Below are positions 236 to 19,997 of a stretch of 22,701 nt of DNA, piece after piece. The notes beneath the pieces are model-generated. The model was not told the origin of the DNA. It searched no databases and saw only the letters and a program-made list of their open reading frames with translations. The stretch is from a bacterium (lineage in GTDB: Bacteria > Babelota > Babeliae > Babelales > JABCYS01). The stretch is from contig DAIDHG010000013.1 in assembly GCA_027452085.1 (NCBI GenBank), forward strand, positions 1 through 22,701. The letters run 5' to 3'. The first letter of the stretch is position 1. The number at the start of each line of letters is the position of its first letter. Both the position numbers and the translations under genes were made by a program.

Positions 236-1756
236 ATGACTGGGATTTGGCAAGAATTTCTCAACATTGCAAAGCAAGAAGCTGGCAGCCAGATGGTAGA
301 AACCTGGTTGCGCGCCGTAAAGCTTGTGCAATGGAATATACACGATCAAACGGTGCTTCTTGAGGCACCAAATAGCTTTGTGCGAGAATGGCTCCAGCAA
401 CATTATTTGCCTTTCTTCGAACAGCATCTTGCGCGACTATTTAATGTTGATTCCATTACTATCGCCTTTCTTGCCCAAGACTCTGTGCAACAAACCATTC
501 GTATAAAACCTGCGGTTGCAGATGCATCAAAGCCCCATGAAGAATCTAAACAAACACATCAAACCCAACTATTCGACACGCCGCCCGAGCTCCGTCAATC
601 CAATGTAGGCAAAAGTTTTATGCCAGCATCAGCAGTTACTGGCATCGAACCACGAACTACCAGCCCAATAACCAATGTTCCAAGCCTTACCAAGAGATCG
701 ATACCAGCCGCTGCGATGGTGGGCTACAAGAGCCAAATTCAACCCTTTAATAGCGCCTTTACCTTTGATTCATTCGTGGTCGGACCAAATAATGAATTGG
801 CACACGCAGCTGCGCTTGCAGTCACGCAAGATCAAAAAGGATGTAATCCATTATTCATCTACGCACCTTCTGGATTAGGTAAAACGCATTTACTTCATGC
901 CATTGGCAACGCTTTACAAAATTCATCAGCGCGAGTTTTGTATCAAACGGCTGAGCGGTTTGTGCAGGATTACATCAACTCCATCCGCTTTGAAAAAATT
1001 CATCAATTTCAGCTTAAATACAAAGATGTAGACCTATTGCTCATTGATGATGTGCAGTTTTTATCCAATAAAGAGCAGACGCAAGAAGCTTTTTTCCATA
1101 TCTTCAATGCATTATACGACGCACAAAAGCAACTCGTATTTACCTCTGATACCTATCCCCATCAACTCAGTGGTATTGCAGATCGATTGCGCTCACGTTT
1201 TGAAAGCGGCCTCATTGTAGACATTCTTCCGCCTTCACTGGAAACGAAGGTGGCCATATTAAAGAAAAAAGCTGAGCAAAATAATGTAATCCTTCCTGAT
1301 GAGGTAGCCTTCTTTCTCGCTTCACGCAACACCGGCAATGTGCGCACGCTCGAAGGTTCGTTAATTCAGGTCATGGCCGTAGCAGCCCTGACCAAGCAAC
1401 AGGTAAACTTAGATGCGGCCAAGCGTGCGTTAATGCGCTATGGCCAGGAAAAGATTGCCAATGCCGTTAACTTTGATCGTATTGTAAAACGTGTGTGCGA
1501 ACATTACTCATATAACTTGAGCGATTTNNNNNNNNNNTCGGAAAGTAAAACGAAAGAGCTCGCGCTCGCTCGGCAAGTTGCCATGTATCTCATGAAAAAA
1601 TTAACGAGCAAATCGTTACAAGAAATTGGTTATTTCTTGGGGCGCAAAGATCATTCAACGGTGCTCCACGGATTTAATAAAATTAAGAATTGGATTGAGT
1701 CGTCTCCTGATTTCTCAGCACAACTGATGGCGTTGGAAGCAAAAATTCTGAGCTAA
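236..1756 (+). CDS. dnaA: Chromosomal replication initiator DnaA
   Basis: Domain I (W..FL...ETWL..., LEAPNSFVREWL), FTFDSFVVGPNN, NPLFIY, Walker A APSGLGKTHLL, Walker B LLLIDDVQF, RLRSRF, NVRTLEG, domain IV ARQVAMYL...IGYFLGRKDHSTVLH. Start moved from 143 to ATG 236 (MTGIWQEF) because DnaA domain I normally begins at that Trp. Contains 10 N at 1528-1537. Confidence 0.97.
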   Translation: MTGIWQEFLNIAKQEAGSQMVETWLRAVKLVQWNIHDQTVLLEAPNSFVREWLQQHYLPFFEQHLARLFNVDSITIAFLAQDSVQQTIRIKPAVADASKPHEESKQTHQTQLFDTPPELRQSNVGKSFMPASAVTGIEPRTTSPITNVPSLTKRSIPAAAMVGYKSQIQPFNSAFTFDSFVVGPNNELAHAAALAVTQDQKGCNPLFIYAPSGLGKTHLLHAIGNALQNSSARVLYQTAERFVQDYINSIRFEKIHQFQLKYKDVDLLLIDDVQFLSNKEQTQEAFFHIFNALYDAQKQLVFTSDTYPHQLSGIADRLRSRFESGLIVDILPPSLETKVAILKKKAEQNNVILPDEVAFFLASRNTGNVRTLEGSLIQVMAVAALTKQQVNLDAAKRALMRYGQEKIANAVNFDRIVKRVCEHYSYNLSDXXXXSESKTKELALARQVAMYLMKKLTSKSLQEIGYFLGRKDHSTVLHGFNKIKNWIESSPDFSAQLMALEAKILS

Positions 1757-2802
1757 GAGGTATACACATCCCAATTGGCTAACTGAGCATTTTTGCGATC
1801 GCGCTTCGTTCTAAAAAAGCGGTCTTTCATACATTTGGTTGCCAATTTCTTATACCAATCAAAATAGCTGTCTACCACGAATCGTTCTTTCAATCCAACG
1901 AGCGCACGGAAATTTTCAGTATCAATGACAACCATTTTTCCAGTGTCTTCTTCGATCATGAAATTTTGCAAATGTGGGTCAATGCGGTATTGGGCAAATT
2001 GGCTCAATCTCAAACACCTTTTTGAATTTACAAAATCAAACCACGGCCTATCTTGGGCCTTGATGCAGTCAGCAATAATAGCATAGAGCCCTGGAATGGT
2101 TGTTTTATAGCCCCGATCGCAATTTCCCATATTCTTTCCCTCTACCACAAGCCAGCGCGGCTCTTGAGGCAGCCAATACCATTTCCGCGGAAAGTCGACG
2201 ACCTTTGACCAATAGGCGTCGTGCTGCACTAATTTTTGTATCTCTTCAAGGTTTTTGATTCGCGTAAAGCCAGTTAAATGGCGCATGATGCCACCGCCCA
2301 TAATAAAAAAGAAGCCTGGCTCCATGCCTTTACTAAATGGTGAAACAAAGTTTTTTGGCGTTTCAGAAAATAGTTTTACGACAAACGGATACTTTTTAAA
2401 TTTCAGCACTAAAGCCCCGCACTCATTTACGTAGCTATAATCAGTATCCTTCAGCACTTCAAAATCGGTAAAACGCTTTCTGTGTTGGGCAAGCTCTTTG
2501 AGCAAACCTTCAATGAGCTGGCTCAATATTTCACCCGGTACTGATTGCGTTGTATCACGGCGGAACGAAATGGCATGGTGCGGTAACAGATGGGTATCAA
2601 AAAACTCTTTATCGTAGGGCCGAAAAATTGGGCCGTATTCCAGGTGGGAATCTTTGAGCGTAAATTTTTTATCGGGCTCATGTTGCCAGTAGGTAGTGAT
2701 TTCGGGCACATGTACCGATGGTCGCAAAATACTTCGGTTGGCCGCTTCAAGCGGTAATGCACCAAGCAGTATTAAAAATAAGTTACTCAATCGTGCCATC
2801 AT
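1753..2802 (-). CDS. Secreted hypothetical protein with protein-kinase-like motifs
   Basis: Long ORF; start re-called at 2802 (MMARLSNLFLILLGALPLEA, signal-peptide-like). Motifs FVVKLF, DPHLQNFMI and VVIDTE occur in kinase order. Stop overlaps the dnaA stop. Confidence 0.7.
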   Translation of the reverse strand: MMARLSNLFLILLGALPLEAANRSILRPSVHVPEITTYWQHEPDKKFTLKDSHLEYGPIFRPYDKEFFDTHLLPHHAISFRRDTTQSVPGEILSQLIEGLLKELAQHRKRFTDFEVLKDTDYSYVNECGALVLKFKKYPFVVKLFSETPKNFVSPFSKGMEPGFFFIMGGGIMRHLTGFTRIKNLEEIQKLVQHDAYWSKVVDFPRKWYWLPQEPRWLVVEGKNMGNCDRGYKTTIPGLYAIIADCIKAQDRPWFDFVNSKRCLRLSQFAQYRIDPHLQNFMIEEDTGKMVVIDTENFRALVGLKERFVVDSYFDWYKKLATKCMKDRFFRTKRDRKNAQLANWDVYTS

Positions 2803-2811
2803 AGTGTTTCT

Positions 2812-2966
2812 TCTCAAGCAGTTTGGCTGTCGTATATTTCTGACAAGTAAAGGCACTCTCATGTAACGCTCCTACAAAATACCACTCTCTTGGCTTCGAC
2901 GAGCGGGGCTCCACTCGCCTAAAAGAGTGTATTTTGCTAGTCGCTGTCTTAAGCAATACGCTGAGA
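2812..2966 (-). ncRNA. Candidate structured intergenic RNA (long imperfect hairpin; 6S-like or cis-regulatory leader)
   Basis: Nested complementary arms: TCTCA/TGAGA at the ends, CAAAATAC (2875-2882)/GTATTTTG (2929-2936), ACTCT/AGAGT, GGC/GCC, GAGTGG/CCGCTC. Several plus-strand mismatches become G-U pairs on the minus strand. Confidence 0.4.
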
Positions 2967-2983: not shown

Positions 2984-4126
2984 TTATGCATACTTGGCGC
3001 AATATTGCGTAATGCCATCACAAATACCACGCGCCAACGTATCTTGATACGTGGTCGTATTTAAACGGATTGCTTCCTGTTCATTTGATAAAAAGCCAAG
3101 TTCAATTAATACCGATGGCATGTTGGTACCAAGCAACACCTGAGAGATTGCCTTTTTCACTTTTAAATCAGGCACATTTGGGTAATTTCGATGAATACTG
3201 TTCAAGGTGAGCTGGTGAACATTTTGTGCCAGAATTGCACTCTGCTCATCTCGCCATGTTTGGCGCTGCTGGCTCATGTTATGGTGATTGGCAGTATACA
3301 CATCGACTGTTGCTGGAAGATTTAGAAAATAGGTTTCAATGCCAGCCGTTGTAGGGCGCGGTGAACTATTGGCGTGAATCGAAACAAAAAGATCTGCGCC
3401 CCATTCATTGGCAAAGGTAGTTCGTTCATCAAGTGGTACAAATACATCATGCGCTCTCGTTGTTGCCACCGTAAATCCGGCGTGCTGTAAATGCTGTGCA
3501 ACCTTTGCCCCTACTTGATAAGCAATATCTTTTTCACGAATATTAAAATGGCCTACGGCACCGCTATCTTCTCCCCCATGGCCTTGATCTATCACAATCC
3601 TAGTGCCTTTTGCTAAACGGTGCGGCGCTGAATTGTGATCTTTCAATTGTTCAAGCACATCCAAATGATGTAATTGGAATACAACGCCAGGCTGCTGCTG
3701 AATTGAATTGAAGGTAGCGTAGGTAATACGCACCTTTCTGGGGTCAAATGAAAATTGAAACATGATCCCGTCAATGGGGGTGGTCACTTCAGCCACTTGA
3801 ATTTTATACCACGGCGTTACCTGCGTTTGATTGAGCTGTTGAGATCCGGGAGCATTATGCGTTATTCGTCCTTCTTTATTGATACGATCGATCGCCGCAC
3901 GAGCTTCAGCGGATGATACCTTAGCCTTAGGGATCATGAATTTAACCACGGCCTGGTTCTCAGCCACTTTGCGAACCGGAATGAGATTCACGACAGGACG
4001 CTCTGCAAAGTAGCAGCCAATGTTATCGGTAATAGCACCGCGATGATAAAAAAAGCGATTAAGCTTGTTCAGCTGCGCGTGTGCTGTTGCACACATAAGC
4101 AGCAGTAATAATGTACAGTAACGCAT
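2984..4126 (-). CDS. N-acetylmuramoyl-L-alanine amidase (Amidase_3) with signal peptide and uncharacterised N-terminal domain
   Basis: IVIDQGHGGEDSGAVG, EKD, LDERTTFAN, DLFVSIHANS, GIETY, MPSVLIELGFLSN; signal peptide ending ATAHA. Confidence 0.93.
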   Translation of the reverse strand: MRYCTLLLLLMCATAHAQLNKLNRFFYHRGAITDNIGCYFAERPVVNLIPVRKVAENQAVVKFMIPKAKVSSAEARAAIDRINKEGRITHNAPGSQQLNQTQVTPWYKIQVAEVTTPIDGIMFQFSFDPRKVRITYATFNSIQQQPGVVFQLHHLDVLEQLKDHNSAPHRLAKGTRIVIDQGHGGEDSGAVGHFNIREKDIAYQVGAKVAQHLQHAGFTVATTRAHDVFVPLDERTTFANEWGADLFVSIHANSSPRPTTAGIETYFLNLPATVDVYTANHHNMSQQRQTWRDEQSAILAQNVHQLTLNSIHRNYPNVPDLKVKKAISQVLLGTNMPSVLIELGFLSNEQEAIRLNTTTYQDTLARGICDGITQYCAKYA

Positions 4127-4150: not shown

Positions 4151-5233
4151 CTACGCAACGCCAGAATCGACCATGATTGCGAAGTTGTGTCGTCTTCCCC
4201 ATGCTGTTAGGAATGAATTTAAATCATATTTCACTACTGTTTTTTCATCTGCATCAAATGCCGGATCATGGCAAATAACCTTTTTGTGTCGCGCATCGTA
4301 GCCCACTACCAACAGTAAATGACCAGAGGTATAGCCCGTTGCACCACCCTTTAATGGCCCCTGCACACTCACCATTACTGGCACACCACGTGCCAGCTGA
4401 CGATGTAAATCTACAAATGAAGGTAATCGCATATGCCACCACGCTCGTTGACAACCCGTTGCTTGAAAAGCAAAGGCAACATTAAAAGGCCAACTGCCAA
4501 AAGTATCAAGGCCGGCATCATACACTTCATGCGCGACTTGCACGGGATTAACCGGTGCATTGGCCACATAGGCCAACAACATACTTAATGAAGTTGGTGA
4601 ACACAGATGCGGCGCACGGGGGTGCTGCAAAACCATCTGTGAATATTTTGGCACATCATCTACGTGAACGGTTTTTAAAACCGGCGCTATTTTCCGACCT
4701 GCGTCAGGTATAAATTTTTTAAGATCAGCAATATTTACAAACAAGCCACGCAGTTCGCCGAGATCAGCGCCATCGTGGGCCTCTACACGCAAGCGATAGC
4801 CATCTGCTAAATCTGGCACTTCCAGCCGCACATGCATGCCTTGCGAATCATGTTCTTTGCTTATATAAGAGCGCTGAATAGAGTTGCCCCAATCGATCAT
4901 TTTATGCCACGGCAACCATTGTTTTGTTTTCGTACTCCGTGCTTGCACATAAAAGCTAAAATGGCCCGTGTTTGGCTTTAATGCGTTCCATGAAAAGATA
5001 AGCTGCGAAAATGGTTGCGTATCAACCTGCAGGAAGGTAGCCTGATTTTTGTTGTGAAATTGAGCTCGTTCCGCGTTATCAAATTGCTTTGCATAAAACC
5101 ACGTCCAGGCATTTCGCTCGGATCCCTGCTTGGTCTTGGTAAAAAATGTAGAATCAAAAATTGATTCTGCCCGCAGCATTGGTTGCGCACACGCACCCAA
5201 AAGAACCAATGCCAATAATTGTATAACTCTCAT
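4151..5233 (-). CDS. Secreted C39-like (papain-fold) peptidase
   Basis: YSQM...LCSPTSLSM (Gln and catalytic Cys), GHLLLVVGYD (His), VICHDPA (Asp); N-terminal hydrophobic signal; SWNA-containing N-terminal domain. Confidence 0.82.
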   Translation of the reverse strand: MRVIQLLALVLLGACAQPMLRAESIFDSTFFTKTKQGSERNAWTWFYAKQFDNAERAQFHNKNQATFLQVDTQPFSQLIFSWNALKPNTGHFSFYVQARSTKTKQWLPWHKMIDWGNSIQRSYISKEHDSQGMHVRLEVPDLADGYRLRVEAHDGADLGELRGLFVNIADLKKFIPDAGRKIAPVLKTVHVDDVPKYSQMVLQHPRAPHLCSPTSLSMLLAYVANAPVNPVQVAHEVYDAGLDTFGSWPFNVAFAFQATGCQRAWWHMRLPSFVDLHRQLARGVPVMVSVQGPLKGGATGYTSGHLLLVVGYDARHKKVICHDPAFDADEKTVVKYDLNSFLTAWGRRHNFAIMVDSGVA

Positions 5234-15153: not shown

Positions 15154-15159
15154 ATAATG

Positions 15160-15923
15160 ATGGATAAAAAGCGCGGTCGTGCTCGCTATGAATTAACAAC
15201 GGAGCAGTGGCACAAAATTAAGGATTTATTGCCTGGCAAGGCTGGGGATCGTGGCAGAACAGCAATAGACAATCGACTTTTCGTAGATGGTGTATTGTGG
15301 ATCCTGCGATCAGGAGCTCGGTGGTCAGATATGCCCGAGAGGTATGGCAAGTACAAGTCGATTCACAAACGATTTACTCGCTGGGCAATGAAAGGAGTCT
15401 GGGAAAAGATATTTATGCATTTGGTTAAAGACCGTGATAATGAATATCTTATGATAGACAGCACTCTGGTTAAAGCGCATCACCAAGCCACCACATATAA
15501 AAAAAAGGGCAGGCTTTGGGGCGTTCCAGAGGTGGCCTGACGACTAAAATCCATATGATGTGCGATGCTTTAGGCCTTCCAGTAAAGTTCATATTAACTG
15601 CAGGTGAGGCGAGTGATTTTGAACAAGCAATTCCTCTTTTACATGGTGAACAACCTGGATATGTGGTAGCAGACAAAGGATACGATAGCAACGAAATTGT
15701 TGACTTTATCCAACAAATCAACGCAATTGCGGTCATCCCACCACGATCAAATCGACTTCATCAACGCATTTATGATAAGATCATTTACAAAGAAAGAAAT
15801 TTGATAGAGCGGCTTTTTAACAGGCTCAAGCAATTTAGAAAAATAGCTACCAGATTTGAAAAAATACGGATCAACTTTGAAGCACTGATTTATCTGGCTT
15901 GTTCATATTTATGGTTGATCTAA
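15160..15923 (+). CDS. IS5-family DDE transposase (orfA/orfB joined by -1 frameshift)
   Basis: orfA: LTTEQW..I..LLP, GVLWILRSGARW, IDST; orfB in -1 frame: LGRSRGGLTTKIH, ADKGYD, YKERNLIERLFNRLK (Y-2-R-3-E-6-K). In-frame slippery A_AAA_AAG at 15501-15507. Start could be 15157 or 15160. Confidence 0.93.
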
Positions 15924-15967: not shown

Positions 15968-16015
15968 AAAAAAATACCATGACGTGGTTAATAATGTGCC
16001 ACGGCATGGTATTTT
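15968..16015 (-). terminator. Probable intrinsic terminator of nurA
   Basis: 17-bp arms AAAATACCATG(A/C)CGTGG with one mismatch (15971-15987 / 15999-16015), ending in a U7 run on the minus strand, at the nurA stop. Confidence 0.75.
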
Positions 16016-17123
16016 AAATTCCAATACTTCTTTTTTGAAAACTTTTTCTCGAAATGGCATATCGTTGTTTATGTTCGATCGAAAGTTTTTGTACCGCATG
16101 GTAGAAAAAATCTCTATCTGGGCCTTTGACCACGGCAGCTTCGTGCGCCTCGGCTAAAGAAATAGGATAACCGCGACCTTTATGAATTTGATCAAGCACG
16201 AGCGAGGCAACTTGATCGACAATAGATCTATCCTGGGCCATCCAGGCGGGCAGTTCAACCCGACCAATTTCCTCCTCACCATTCAGATAAAAGAAATGTG
16301 GCTTCAAATGATCTGGATATCGTTTGCTTATGGCGGCCTGGTTTGCAAAAATTCCACTGCGTTTATTATGATCAAGATAAAAGTTAACAACGTTGGCATC
16401 ACATAATTTAAAATCGATCTGCCGCTTTGAGCGCATATATTCATAGGCTCGAATTAAGCCAATGAGTTCCTTACTTTTAGGATAGCTAATATAGCTTGCC
16501 ATCCAAATGCCATTGCGGGCCGCTTGATCAAGAGAACTTAAATAAGCGGGCAAGAATCGTTCTTTGGTAACTTCATCTTTCGCTTCTAAGTGCCAAAAAA
16601 TTAAGGAACCATCAAATAAGATCAGCGTTGTTCGTCCCTGCCCTTCTGCCACAATCTTCATACCTTGAACGACGCCAGCACGTAGCTCAAACTCTTCTCG
16701 AAGGCAGTTAATAAGATCAGTGCCGTCATCGCCGCCTTCTTCATCAGCCGTAAAAATAACTGATGGTTCAGCATGCCGGAGCATAGTTGATTTTGTTTGG
16801 TTGTAGGAAAATTGCACTGAGCCGATATTGATTAATGAGCAGGCGGCAGATTGATGGCGATCAGGATAAATTTGTGAGCCATCAACAGCTAAAATAGTGT
16901 AATTGGCTGGCGTAGGTGCAATGGCATGGCTGGCATCCACCGCTCCATGCCATGCGGGCACCGACCAGGGGAGATTTACCGCAGCAACCTTTTGGCTAAA
17001 AAGGGGATCATCAGATAGTTGCTGCCACATTTCGCGAGCGAGCTCAACCTCTGGTGAATTGTCTTGAAATAAACGTTCGACTTGCTGCTGAAGCTCTTTA
17101 AATAATTTGCCGCGATCTAACAT
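16014..17123 (-). CDS. nurA: NurA-domain nuclease (RNase H-like fold)
   Basis: ILAVDGSQ, LFDGSL, RVELPAW and GYPISLAEAHEAAVV are the characteristic NurA motifs. Confidence 0.86.
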   Translation of the reverse strand: MLDRGKLFKELQQQVERLFQDNSPEVELAREMWQQLSDDPLFSQKVAAVNLPWSVPAWHGAVDASHAIAPTPANYTILAVDGSQIYPDRHQSAACSLINIGSVQFSYNQTKSTMLRHAEPSVIFTADEEGGDDGTDLINCLREEFELRAGVVQGMKIVAEGQGRTTLILFDGSLIFWHLEAKDEVTKERFLPAYLSSLDQAARNGIWMASYISYPKSKELIGLIRAYEYMRSKRQIDFKLCDANVVNFYLDHNKRSGIFANQAAISKRYPDHLKPHFFYLNGEEEIGRVELPAWMAQDRSIVDQVASLVLDQIHKGRGYPISLAEAHEAAVVKGPDRDFFYHAVQKLSIEHKQRYAISRKSFQKRSIGI

Positions 17124-17206: not shown

Positions 17207-17701
17207 ATGTCAGGGCATATAGCACGTCTTTGCTTATTCATTTCATTAGTTTCGACATCATCGCAGATGATTGCTGATACAAAATCATGGTGGTCATTTG
17301 ATTTTTCAACCACAGCGTCAGCACAAACCGATATTGCGGAAGAATCAACCCCGCAAGAAAAGCGCCCTTCATTTTTAAAGCAATGCCAACAATGGACGGG
17401 CCCCGTATTAGTTGGTTCAGCATTATTAATAGGCGAGCATATATACAATCGCTTTCAGAGAAACAACCTCAGAAAATTGTTTAATGAAAACATGGCTGAA
17501 ACACGCAATGTTATGGGCGAAGAATTTACCAAACAGTTTGAAAAGCAGGCAAAGGAAATGCGCGAAATTAAACAAGAGCTACAACAGATTCGCCAGCGAA
17601 ATGAAATTCTCACAGCCGCACTCAATGAGGCCATGGGCAATGATGACAATGACCGAGAAGAAGAAAATAACCAAGAAAGGAAAAACAATGAAAATGAATA
17701 A
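17207..17701 (+). CDS. Exported/membrane-anchored coiled-coil hypothetical protein (164 aa)
   Basis: GGGAG RBS before ATG 17207; signal-like N-terminus, hydrophobic segment GPVLVGSALLIG, E/K/Q-rich heptads, acidic Asn-rich tail. Confidence 0.72.
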   Translation: MSGHIARLCLFISLVSTSSQMIADTKSWWSFDFSTTASAQTDIAEESTPQEKRPSFLKQCQQWTGPVLVGSALLIGEHIYNRFQRNNLRKLFNENMAETRNVMGEEFTKQFEKQAKEMREIKQELQQIRQRNEILTAALNEAMGNDDNDREEENNQERKNNENE

Positions 17702-18983
17702 TCAAGTTTTTTTTCTTCTATGTTTCATTTCTACGCCTCTGTTGAGCACAAGCACCAGTGGTCAAAGGAAAAAAGATTTTCAAGCTCGATTTAGAGCCGC
17801 CTATGCATCGCGCATGAAAGAACATGAAGAAAGAAATAAAAATCTAGTTCCTGATGCCGGTGCGAGCTTAGACGACGAAATGACGCAGCTCCGTATGAAA
17901 ATTCGGCAGATATACATGATACCGGATGAAGAGCCAACCTATGCACCAGAAATTCTTGCCGGTGGCACAGCGGCCTTCCTCGGCGCCAATGGGTTAGCAC
18001 AAGCAAATTCGGCACGCTTTATAATAGAAGCTGGTGTTGCACTAACAACAATTAAATTAGCTGCAGCCGTTGCTGCAAGCAGCTATATCATCTATAAAAT
18101 CCGCCATTTTATGCGCGATGATGAAGGCGCCAAAAAATTGAAGAAGGAATATAAGGAGGATATGACGGCTTGGAAACGCGAATTTAGTCATCAATTGGGT
18201 AAAATCCATGAAGAGCAAGAGAAATTTCATGCCGAACAACGCCAAGATTTTAATGCTTTAAAAGTCGAGACCAAGGCGACTTATGAACGCCGCAAACAGA
18301 AAACCAAGGATATGCTTGCCACTGAATTTGCAAAGCAACGAGAAATAATCGATAAAGGTTTAAATGCGGCCACAAAAAAAATCGACGAAAAAATAAAAGA
18401 AAAAAAAGATTTAAGTGCGAGCGAGAAGGCAACGTTGCAAAAAATGATTGATAAGCTGCAAGCTCAAATGATCAAGGATCGGGAACAGTTCAATGAACTT
18501 TTAGCCGAACAAAAAGAGTTGGGCAAAAAAGAAAAAGAGCAATTATTAAAGACCATAAGCGAGCTTGAAGGGATATTGGCAGAAGCCAAAGGGGTACGAG
18601 AGCTACAGGCTCGAGAAGTTGGGTCTTTGCATGAAGCGGTCAGCCTCATAGAAAGAGGCAGCTATAAAAAGTTTATGGCGGAACTAGACAAGGTCAAAAA
18701 AACCATGGAAGAGACCCCGAAAAGAACTTTTATGGATAGACTTCGCGGTCGCCCTGGCCATAGTCGTGGCGTATCGCTCGGCGGCACAAGCTCAAGCCCA
18801 GATACTGCAGCTCGCTCTTCCAGCATGACTGAGGATGGCACCCCAGGTAGCGGACGGCCTATCCTAAGGCCTGGGGTAAAAAGGCTTTCCTTGGGCAACC
18901 TTGACCTTAAAGCCCTTGCTGAGCTTGCAAGAGAGAGCGCCCGCGCTGAGGGCGAAACCCAGGGCACTGGAAACGTTGGATAG
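17688..18983 (+). CDS. Exported/membrane-anchored long coiled-coil hypothetical protein (431 aa)
   Basis: AAAGGA RBS before ATG 17688, overlapping the previous gene end; signal-like N-terminus, ~50-aa Ala/Gly-rich hydrophobic stretch, long K/E-rich helical region, Ser/Gly/Arg-rich tail. Confidence 0.8.
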   Translation: MKMNNQVFFLLCFISTPLLSTSTSGQRKKDFQARFRAAYASRMKEHEERNKNLVPDAGASLDDEMTQLRMKIRQIYMIPDEEPTYAPEILAGGTAAFLGANGLAQANSARFIIEAGVALTTIKLAAAVAASSYIIYKIRHFMRDDEGAKKLKKEYKEDMTAWKREFSHQLGKIHEEQEKFHAEQRQDFNALKVETKATYERRKQKTKDMLATEFAKQREIIDKGLNAATKKIDEKIKEKKDLSASEKATLQKMIDKLQAQMIKDREQFNELLAEQKELGKKEKEQLLKTISELEGILAEAKGVRELQAREVGSLHEAVSLIERGSYKKFMAELDKVKKTMEETPKRTFMDRLRGRPGHSRGVSLGGTSSSPDTAARSSSMTEDGTPGSGRPILRPGVKRLSLGNLDLKALAELARESARAEGETQGTGNVG

Positions 18984-19091: not shown

Positions 19092-19997
19092 ATGATAAAC
19101 TACAAGAAAAACCTCTTAATCTTAGCCCTACTGGCTGGCACTGGCATCGGTTTTGCCATGTTTGCCCGCCCGCTTCATCGTAGATCGGCTGCCCCAGTAG
19201 CAGTCTTTGACTTAGGCGGCGTTCTTTTTGAGGTCAACAATGGCAAGTTGATGAAGAAAAAGATCGGCATTGGCAAGATTATTTCCTATGTTTTAGGTTT
19301 TAACAACCCATTCAAACTACAAAAGAAAACATTCGATATTCTGTATCAAATGCGTGGCGAACAACGCCCCAAAAAGGGGCATATTCCAGATCCAATGCAC
19401 CCACTTGCTCGTGGCCTTCCTATGCCGGAGATTATGATAGAGTGGCAGTTAGGTCTGAAAACCCCTACAGAGTTATTGGATGAGGTGAATGAGTATGTTG
19501 CTCACCTTGCCCAAAACAAGCATTTTTCATCGGGCTTACAGCGTCGCCTCGTGCATACCATCCTTACCCATATCTTTGATGCCAAAGAGCGTATTGCATT
19601 CACTGAACCGATTAAGGAAGGCTGGGATTTACTGCATTGGTATAAGAAGAACGGTCATGAAATCTATATTCTTTCAAATATGGATCACGACACCATGGGG
19701 CTTCTACAAGAACATTACCCTGAATTGTTTGCACAAGTAAATGGCGTGGTATATTCAGCTGAAGTTAAAACCATGAAACCATGGCCTGATATATTCCAAC
19801 ATCTATTAGACAAATTCGGCTTACAAGCAGAGCAATGCACATTCTTCGATGACCAGCTCGAAAATATTAAGAGCGCGCAAAACCTAGGTTTTGGCACCGT
19901 TCATTGCAGCTCACCAAAAGCCATGAAGCAATGGTTTAAGCAGGTTAAGTCTGCAGAATCAGTAACCCTGCCAGCTGCTTCGCTGACCATAGCTTAA
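19092..19997 (+). CDS. HAD-superfamily phosphatase (YihX-like) with N-terminal signal/anchor
   Basis: Motif I VFDLGGVL, motif II ILSN, motif III KP, motif IV FFDD...N...A...G; N-terminus KKNLLILALLAGTGIGFA; GAGGGA RBS. Confidence 0.88.
   Translation: MINYKKNLLILALLAGTGIGFAMFARPLHRRSAAPVAVFDLGGVLFEVNNGKLMKKKIGIGKIISYVLGFNNPFKLQKKTFDILYQMRGEQRPKKGHIPDPMHPLARGLPMPEIMIEWQLGLKTPTELLDEVNEYVAHLAQNKHFSSGLQRRLVHTILTHIFDAKERIAFTEPIKEGWDLLHWYKKNGHEIYILSNMDHDTMGLLQEHYPELFAQVNGVVYSAEVKTMKPWPDIFQHLLDKFGLQAEQCTFFDDQLENIKSAQNLGFGTVHCSSPKAMKQWFKQVKSAESVTLPAASLTIA

Follow-up and report, generated by a model that had tools for sequence, protein, structure and literature searches.

What does the gene next to dnaA encode in a parasite whose exported proteins are mostly without names? 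Hardly any of the Dependentiae, widespread bacterial parasites of protists, have been cultured, and most proteins that they export lack an assigned function. The contig DAIDHG010000013.1 (assembly GCA_027452085.1; referred to here as the window, that is, the whole stretch of 22,701 nucleotides) carries, at 1753..2802 on its minus strand, a gene for a protein that combines a signal-like N-terminus with motifs of a kinase catalytic core. An earlier interpretation based on the letters of the window (the sequence-only reading) had proposed an exported atypical kinase, serving either as a host-directed effector or as an envelope kinase. The computational analysis described here favours, with a probability of roughly 0.55, an atypical kinase or ATPase (an enzyme hydrolysing adenosine triphosphate, ATP) that is exported through Sec, is catalytically competent and has its site of action in the envelope, not in the host. 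It offers a fold and catalytic-site hypothesis for a conserved family that is missed by sequence searches against Pfam, NCBIfam and the PDB.

The first question is whether the protein is kinase-like at all. The AlphaFold2 model, based on a 68-sequence alignment, has a predicted local distance difference test score (pLDDT) of 92.9 and a predicted template modelling score (pTM) of 0.88. It has two lobes, an N-lobe with a beta-sheet and a helical C-lobe. Its N-terminal part comprises a helix at residues 2-20 (the signal), a hairpin at 34-50, short helices and strands, and a long helix at 90-105. Strands follow at 114-118, 128-135 and 140-146, the third of which holds K143, and then helices spanning 149-201. 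After this insert, four strands lie within 207-245, followed by a helix at 257-269 and a loop with D275 and N280; the C-terminal part is made up of strands at 281-284 and 290-292, with D294 at the end, and three short helices. The sequence-only reading had suggested structure prediction and fold searches as a check, and each of the three structure searches matched the model to protein-kinase-like (PKL) folds, over roughly residues 59-332. The 50 Foldseek matches listed from the PDB are all kinases, pseudokinases or kinase domains, and all are weak (best E 2e-3). In the BFVD structure search, four matches reach E<=1e-3, and the list consists mostly of viral kinases. The top structural neighbours are ABC1/UbiB-type proteins, the group that had been named on account of the DPHxxN loop. 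On this model, a PKL fold is very likely.

The second question is whether the catalytic residues are in place. They were followed in a family alignment of 239 homologues of 300-430 amino acids, gathered by word-indexed and profile searches, from which shorter and longer sequences were excluded. Checked codon by codon, the three motifs pointed out earlier are present: FVVKLF at residues 140-145, with K143; DPHLQNFMI at residues 275-283, with the codons of D275 at 1978-1980 and of N280 at 1963-1965; and VVIDTE at residues 291-296. The last motif starts 11 residues after the Asn, as stated, and D294 itself (1921-1923) lies 14 residues after it. K143 is invariant (239/239), D275 and E296 are found in 238/238 sequences each, and N280 and D294 in 238/239 each; T295 follows with 228/239. 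H277 is less strict (186/238) and is replaced by Asn in 43 sequences. Outside these motifs, G129, R181 and P237 are each present in 239/239, E147 in 225/239 and D245 in 223/239, and R174, R181, R206, K207, W208, K333 and R336 form a set of conserved basic and aromatic residues. Expressed as patterns, DPHxxN occurs in 158/239 homologues, D[PA][HNQ]xxN in 220/239 and [ILVM]D[TS]E, which resembles the IDxE of choline kinases, in 225/239. The order of the residues and their spacing (five from D275 to N280, 14 from N280 to D294) match those of kinases. To judge by the sequences, the conserved motifs exceed chance, given that they are conserved throughout the family. Two findings had been named beforehand as fatal to the kinase proposal, a predicted structure other than a bilobal PKL fold and a lack of conservation of the K, D, N and D residues; since the model matches PKL folds and these four residues are nearly or fully invariant, neither was found.

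The third question is whether the protein leaves the cytoplasm. The hydrophobic, signal-like N-terminus noticed in the window protein is indeed present and is a family trait, as seen in statistics on 68 and 239 members. In 56 of the 68 members, hydropathy reaches 2.0 or more in a window of 10 residues ahead of the conserved Arg. For the larger set, simple rules were applied to the 218 usable N-termini of the 239 sequences. The uncharged stretch has a median length of 16 residues (interquartile range 15-18). Of the 218, 145 have a more positive N-flank than C-flank, 40 show equal charge and 33 the reverse, with mean net charges of +2.7 (N-flank) versus +1.35 (C-flank); position -1 is A, G, S, T, C or N in 167/218. 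A lipobox-like pattern was found in 17/218 N-termini and not in the window protein. By these rules, the segment has the positive n-region, hydrophobic core and small -1 residue expected of a type I Sec signal. The best hydropathy window of the protein (2.61) is in the range of those of the neighbouring amidase (2.70), C39 peptidase (3.02) and NlpC/P60 protein (2.23), whereas DnaA, FtsJ, a tRNA synthetase, NurA and SufS do not exceed 1.14, so that the measure separates wall enzymes from cytoplasmic proteins. Export through Sec with a cleaved signal, leaving the domain outside the cytoplasm, is therefore probable as far as N-terminal composition can tell, because the hydrophobic stretch is short, its N-flank positive and the -1 residue small.

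The open frame extends over 1753..2862 on the minus strand and yields 369 amino acids from the first ATG. The shorter version, which starts at 2802 and opens with MMARLSNLFLILLGALPLEA, agrees with the homologues: the N-termini align, and a median of 23 residues precedes the conserved Arg-Ser (R23-S24 here). The 20-codon extension is not conserved, the open frame of a genus-mate having 360 amino acids versus 372 here. The start at 2802 was adopted over the ATG at 2862; this choice, based on sequence comparison, is provisional. The coordinates of all features are collected in the table.

Table. Positions of the kinase-like gene, its parts and its neighbours in the window.
Feature	Position	Strand	Remarks
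Kinase-like protein, coding sequence	1753..2802	-	349 amino acids plus stop; start favoured by homology
Candidate 20-codon upstream extension	2803..2862	-	alternative ATG at 2862, AGGAG 6 nucleotides before it
Signal-peptide-like segment, residues 1-22	2737..2802	-	one Arg, hydrophobic core LSNLFLILLGALPL, EAAN, then conserved R23-S24
N-terminal extension, residues 23-113	2464..2736	-	RSxxRP motif, beta-hairpin, short helices, long helix into the core
Protein-kinase-like core, residues 114-349	1756..2463	-	strands b1-b3, insert 149-201, four strands, helix 257-269, loops, short C-lobe
K143, candidate lysine for the ATP alpha/beta phosphates	2374..2376	-	in model strand 140-146
Catalytic-loop motif D275-P-H-L-Q-N280	1963..1980	-	after helix 257-269
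D294-T-E296, candidate metal-binding loop (DFG position)	1915..1923	-	end of strand 290-292
dnaA	143..1756	+	convergent, 3' end overlaps the kinase-like gene by 4 nucleotides; conserved neighbour
Amidase_3 gene	2984-4126	-	Pfam E 3.3e-49; upstream, context only
Peptidase_C39_2 gene	4151-5233	-	Pfam E 2.1e-20; upstream, context only

Directly after the signal-like segment lies the motif R-S-x-x-R-P-x-D-x-x-x-P (residues 23-33, about 2704-2736 on the minus strand), in which R23 is present in 204/223 sequences, R27 in 207/224 and P33 in 212/232. It falls in the least confident block of the model (pLDDT about 70) and could have a role in sorting, processing or docking.

How does the protein relate to the kinase-like systems already described? 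The closest layout is that of the ABC1/UbiB family, in which an Ala-rich loop replaces the Gly-rich loop. The available text of bioRxiv 10.1101/149823 gives the KxGQ motif as invariant in the UbiB family; no mention of an "A-rich loop" turned up there. For MSMEG_1954, PMC8696161 in its consulted part reports that K152 binds the alpha and beta phosphates of adenosine diphosphate (ADP), that Q286 and D299 bind metals, that the hinge is formed by E238-M240 and that accessory helices lie at 1-114 and 158-199. Judged by order and spacing in the sequence, K143 would be equivalent to K152 of that protein. The distance from the Lys to the Asp is 151 residues here and 147 in MSMEG_1954, as numbered in that part of the paper, and N280-D294 spans 14 residues versus 13 for Q286-D299. 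The helices 149-201, which follow strand b3 here, resemble the accessory helices 158-199 in position, a likeness of layout that is not proof of homology.

Against this likeness stand several differences. KxGQ and the Ala-rich loop are hallmarks of the ABC1/UbiB family, which includes Rv3197 (MABP-1), MSMEG_1954, COQ8A (ADCK3) and Escherichia coli UbiB, whereas across the 239 homologues KxGQ (sought in the first 130 residues) and the Ala-rich pattern A[AS]A[AS] are both absent (0/239). The metal loop reads DTE instead of the DFG of ABC1/UbiB, the N-terminal extension contains a beta-hairpin where theirs is all-helical, the C-lobe is much shorter than that of UbiB (a protein of 349 versus 546 amino acids), and the N-terminus is signal-peptide-like, unlike in ABC1/UbiB. 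The ABC1 model PF03109 does not match the protein at E<=1 nor any of the 68 members at E<=10. Canonical kinase motifs are equally scarce in the 239 homologues: GxGxxG occurs in two, as expected from the earlier remark that no canonical Gly-rich loop is evident, HRD in one, DFG in none and [AS]PE in 14. The b1-b2 loop is longer than usual according to the model and the alignment; G129 is the sole invariant glycine of this region, and position 128 is A, C or S. Because GxGxxG, HRD, DFG, KxGQ and the Ala-rich loop are absent or nearly so, the proteins form a PKL family of their own, with a UbiB-like layout but without the features that mark UbiB proteins. It was considered whether the family substitutes for a UbiB protein lost in this branch. 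This idea was rejected, as the families without the kinase-like gene have no ABC1 match either; in the phylum as a whole, only weak partial ABC1 matches occur, in 3/201 genomes.

Other kinase-like groups are more distant. Rio1/Rio2, Bud32, the WaaP/Kdo kinases and NleH1/OspG gave no sequence-model match in the Pfam scans, and PF06293 has no match in a six-frame search of the genome. Compared with Rio1/Rio2, Bud32, WaaP and NleH1/OspG, the present family is enlarged by a helical insert of some 50 residues and by an N-terminal extension of 90 residues. To our knowledge, Rio1/Rio2, Bud32, the WaaP/Kdo kinases and NleH1/OspG are cytoplasmic or injected proteins without a Sec signal. The APH/ChoK group (PF01636) gave no Pfam match here either; HxDxxxxN occurs in 5/239 homologues, and the His of H-x-D-x4-N is absent. 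Pkinase (PF00069) has no Pfam match in the protein or in the 68 members; canonical Pkinase genes occur in 2/61 genomes of the order. Fam20C and CotH are kinase-like proteins with a signal peptide that act outside the cytoplasm, in eukaryotic or spore-coat systems. Both are absent from the matches listed in any structure or sequence search, and a relationship may still exist.

A separate group of genes in the same genome belongs to the APH type. On contig C37 (L029:1-888 and 1252-1782, minus strand), two tandem genes with HGDLHVGN...IDN motifs score 29.3 and 24.4 bits against Pfam APH, above its cut-off of 23.2; a six-frame search of the genome with PF03109 matched solely a gene on this contig. 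One of the pair has a signal-like N-terminus, the other ends at the contig edge, and both are distinct from the 1753..2802 family. Counting these APH-type genes, kinase-like proteins of at least two unrelated families, both apparently exported, are encoded in the genome.

The remaining question is where such an enzyme would act. The gene had been called an orphan, which does not hold, for its profile matches 266 cluster representatives and 148 of the 201 genomes sampled across the phylum. The former were obtained at E<=1e-3 (241 at E<=1e-10) when 1.84 billion cluster representatives were searched exhaustively with the profile. A word-indexed search gave 247 relatives at E<=1e-3, and the organism names on three of them are Babeliales, Babeliaceae and Dependentiae. 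Since the best 150 of the 266 representatives are all 181-429 amino acids long, there are no fusions among the 150 matches listed. The gene is present in 24 of 41 whole genomes of close relatives, in which the matches are full-length and without internal stops. Across the phylum, it tends to be carried by nearly every genome of a taxonomic family or by none (for instance, 66/67, 27/28, 14/14, 12/13 and 9/9 versus 0/23, 0/9, 0/4, 0/4 and 0/3), and 138 of the 148 carriers have a single match. In a dnaA tree of 24 genomes, the carriers make up one side of a single branch with a Shimodaira-Hasegawa-like approximate likelihood ratio test (SH-aLRT) support of 100, so that one gain suffices; some dnaA rows in this tree are shortened by the trimming of open reading frames (ORFs), and one long branch is flagged. 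As far as searched, the family is confined to one large branch of Dependentiae (Babeliales). No description of it was found in the main texts, without supplements, of open-access papers or bioRxiv preprints. It is a new family, or a strongly divergent variant, within the known kinase-like superfamily.

The chromosomal position is kept as well. In 19 of 20 loci of relatives, dnaA is convergent to the kinase-like gene, directly adjacent in nine and with one to four ORFs between in ten; the single exception is a paralogue locus. Genomes without the kinase-like gene have a completely different dnaA neighbourhood. Leaving out the genus-mate and the paralogue locus, the median identity to the window protein is 39.8% (18 loci), compared with 45.6% for dnaA, 35.6% for the amidase (nine loci), 39.6% for the C39 peptidase (11 loci) and 32.0% for NlpC/P60 (six loci). 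An envelope role is favoured over that of a host effector because the gene is single-copy, vertically inherited, fixed in position, and conserved like dnaA and the wall hydrolases.

The same evidence bears on the rival that survives best, a host-directed effector kinase. Such a protein would be exported by Sec, then released through type II secretion and its secretin or in vesicles, and would phosphorylate a conserved host protein or a phosphoinositide. The parasitic lifestyle, the presence of secretins and the occasional expansion in copy number are what one would expect of it. The single copy in 138/148 carriers, the one gain on the dnaA tree and the preserved place beside dnaA are not, and conservation near that of dnaA and the wall enzymes is atypical of host-specific effectors. 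Pfam scans of the protein and the 68 members found no eukaryote-like domain or targeting motif. The signal peptide does not help to decide, because 44% of the coding sequences of Chromulinavorax are predicted to have one (PMC6561590, as far as its consulted text goes), and it thus says little on the final destination. Overall, this alternative is doubtful. If true, it would provide a deeply conserved effector kinase in an order where canonical Pkinase genes are rare (2/61 genomes). With either destination, the sequence space of the kinase-like superfamily is widened towards the poorly understood UbiB branch.

The envelope kinase or ATPase favoured here would work as follows. Residues 1-22 would serve as a type I signal peptide, with cleavage probably directly in front of R23. 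The mature protein would form a small PKL core of two lobes, extended at the N-terminus and with helices inserted after b3, in a layout closest to the ABC1/UbiB type. K143 would hold the alpha and beta phosphates of ATP, while N280 and D294, together with E296, would hold Mg2+. D275 may serve as the catalytic base for transfer of the phosphoryl group to a substrate hydroxyl, or to water if the enzyme is an ATPase like the UbiB proteins. The C-lobe would be short and without an activation segment. This short lobe, together with the many basic and aromatic residues that are conserved, would accommodate an anionic lipid or a sugar-phosphate as readily as a protein. The conserved task in the periplasm or envelope may concern a lipid, a small molecule or an envelope protein. 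Should it work outside the cytoplasm, the enzyme would add a rare case of an extracytoplasmic kinase-like enzyme in bacteria, and the source of its ATP becomes the question.

The lifestyle of the host bacterium suggests a source. The genome (0.98 Mb in 88 contigs, 93% complete) has three matches to TLC ATP/ADP translocases and three to secretins. For the phylum, the consulted parts of PMC4776705 and PMC6561590 describe ATP/ADP translocases, type II secretion components, the Sec system and a diderm-like envelope, and they report that Babeliales lack the genes for lipopolysaccharide (LPS). Since these bacteria take up ATP from the host, and this ATP has to pass through the periplasm on its way to the translocases, it could be available there for a UbiB-like enzyme. 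A more specific proposal, that energy parasitism enables a UbiB-like periplasmic enzyme, perhaps one that remodels or traffics lipids or proteins of an LPS-less outer membrane, is tentative and, taken as a whole, unlikely.

The distribution of LpxC was examined in this connection. LpxC occurs in 37/201 genomes, all from five families without the kinase-like gene; by family, twelve have the kinase-like gene only (none with LpxC), five LpxC only and three neither. Two LpxC-less families on the other side of the branch are likewise without the kinase-like gene. The mutual exclusion amounts to a single evolutionary coincidence because the carriers form one branch, and it was set aside as evidence and kept as a lead only.

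Even with a PKL fold, phosphotransfer does not follow automatically. SelO carries out AMPylation and SidJ glutamylation with kinase-like folds. The family may use ATP for such another reaction, or may be a nucleotide- or ligand-binding pseudoenzyme like the macrolide-binding Rv3197. However, the Lys, the Asp-x4-Asn and the Asp are invariant or nearly so in the 239 sequences. Active phosphoryl-transfer enzymes are expected to show this pattern, whereas pseudokinases have usually lost parts of it. Catalytic competence is probable on the basis of these invariant residues, and a fold without phosphotransfer is distinctly improbable.

Another alternative concerns the side of the membrane. The hydrophobic segment may be an uncleaved anchor that leaves the domain in the cytoplasm, where a tethered UbiB-like ATPase would handle membrane lipids from the inside, as is thought for COQ8/UbiB. 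ATP is plentiful there, and the closest structures are of the ABC1/UbiB type. In the consulted text of bioRxiv 10.1101/149823, UbiB proteins are membrane-anchored, lipid-activated ATPases, with a single-pass transmembrane domain in COQ8A and C-terminal ones in E. coli UbiB. The conserved R23 and R27 just past the hydrophobic stretch would fit an anchor, as would an uncharged stretch of at least 19 residues in 52/218 N-termini. A median stretch of 16 residues (17 or fewer in 141/218) is short for a transmembrane helix, though, and the N-flank is the more positive in 145/218 cases versus 33 for the reverse, with small residues dominating at -1. The hallmarks of UbiB (KxGQ, the Ala-rich loop and a PF03109 match) are missing too. 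A cytoplasmic domain on a membrane anchor is very unlikely on this balance.

That the resemblance to kinases is coincidental, with chance motif matches on a different or new fold, is extremely improbable: three independent structure searches and the viral library return almost only kinase-like proteins, the invariant residues stand in the order, spacing and secondary-structure context of kinases, and 22 of the 68 members weakly match one PHROG kinase family at the catalytic block. That family is phrog_18305 ("kinase"), matched at E<=1 with a best value of 0.0024, whereas the next PHROG family is matched by three members; in the window protein, the match covers residues 274-301, which is the D-x4-N...D block. 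The nearest named clusters of the ESM Atlas are Kinase-PolyVal (0.89), YrbL-PhoP_reg (0.88) and Phage_T7_kinase (0.87-0.88), all below 0.9; Kinase-PolyVal and Phage_T7_kinase argue in the same direction, as leads only.

Several observations weigh against an exported, active kinase or ATPase in the envelope. Conventional sequence comparison is silent: Pfam and NCBIfam scans of the protein detect no kinase family, nor do Pfam scans of the 68 members at E<=10, in which the commonest family, RRM_4, is matched by three members. The family profile finds no PDB sequence at E<=10. In hhalign comparisons, single sequences of E. coli UbiB and SrkA reach a probability of 0.1, in alignments that pair the wrong regions; a profile of ten Pkinase sequences taken from two Babeliales genomes reaches 0.3. 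K143, D275, N280 and D294 are equated with catalytic residues of kinases by order, spacing and secondary structure, not by superposition. A canonical Gly-rich loop is lacking, as it is in many atypical PKLs, and no helix-C glutamate was identified. Among the candidates E147 (225/239), E161 (151/239) and E186 (114/239), the best conserved lies just four residues past the lysine. R23 and R27 are conserved directly after the hydrophobic segment, and arginines in this place are unusual in Sec substrates of E. coli. The supply of ATP in the periplasm is something that we infer. Finally, some genomes carry multiple copies (four and five matches in two of them), and this genome has a 35%-identical paralogue on contig C75; both would also fit an effector-like expansion.

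The paralogue itself (L047:798-1817, plus strand) keeps the K, D, N and D-T-E residues, has Asn in place of H277, and it, too, has a signal-like N-terminus. On either side of it lie genes for a T2SSE secretion ATPase (PF00437, E 7.9e-125) and for an ABC ATPase. A phmmer search of residues 255-349 against the PDB returned one match, a designed beta-trefoil at E 1.7, which was dismissed as chance.

The neighbouring wall enzymes had suggested a functional context, the kinase-like gene being the last of a co-oriented run with the C39 peptidase and the amidase. The run exists in the window. Among the 20 loci of relatives examined, it recurs in one genus-mate only; in most relatives, the amidase and C39 genes lie past dnaA, on the strand of dnaA. 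The usual order is FtsH-like, RpiB, lipoprotein, LolC/E-like, PGK, a 180-amino-acid protein, the kinase-like gene, dnaA, amidase, C39 and NlpC/P60. In the window and the genus-mate, the pair of dnaA and the kinase-like gene stays together and is inverted as a unit with respect to the other 18 loci with dnaA. The gene sits behind the amidase and C39 genes because of this inversion, and the operon-like run is lineage-specific, as the inversion is limited to these two. A functional link to the amidase and the C39 peptidase was rejected on these grounds, the adjacency reflecting a genus-specific inversion.

The conserved neighbours on the other side (FtsH-like, RpiB, lipoprotein, LolC/E-like, PGK and the 180-amino-acid protein) give no functional hint. 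The last of them (e.g., L010:6946-7497, minus strand), about 180 amino acids long, is divergent from the kinase-like gene in 17/20 loci and ends in a C-terminal FCP motif; it has no Pfam match and no signal peptide, and in the window's contig it would fall beyond the contig start.

The window contains some further features. Within dnaA, a run of ten N at 1528-1537, translated as XXXX, is probably a masked or unresolved stretch. The C39-like peptidase at 4151-5233 (minus strand) begins with a lipobox-like LLGAC. At 15157-15923 (plus strand), an IS4/IS5-type transposase is represented by overlapping ORFs with DUF4096 (15157-15540) and DDE_Tnp_1 (15516-15923), and this split gene may be either a frameshifted or a frameshift-expressed insertion sequence. 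A NurA-domain gene at 16014-17123 (minus strand) adjoins an ORF of 499 amino acids at 17484-18983 (plus strand) that has no Pfam match; NurA is usually paired with a HerA-type ATPase. Lastly, a HAD hydrolase at 19092-19997 (plus strand) has a signal-like N-terminus, matching the secreted HAD hydrolases reported for Chromulinavorax in the consulted text of PMC6561590.

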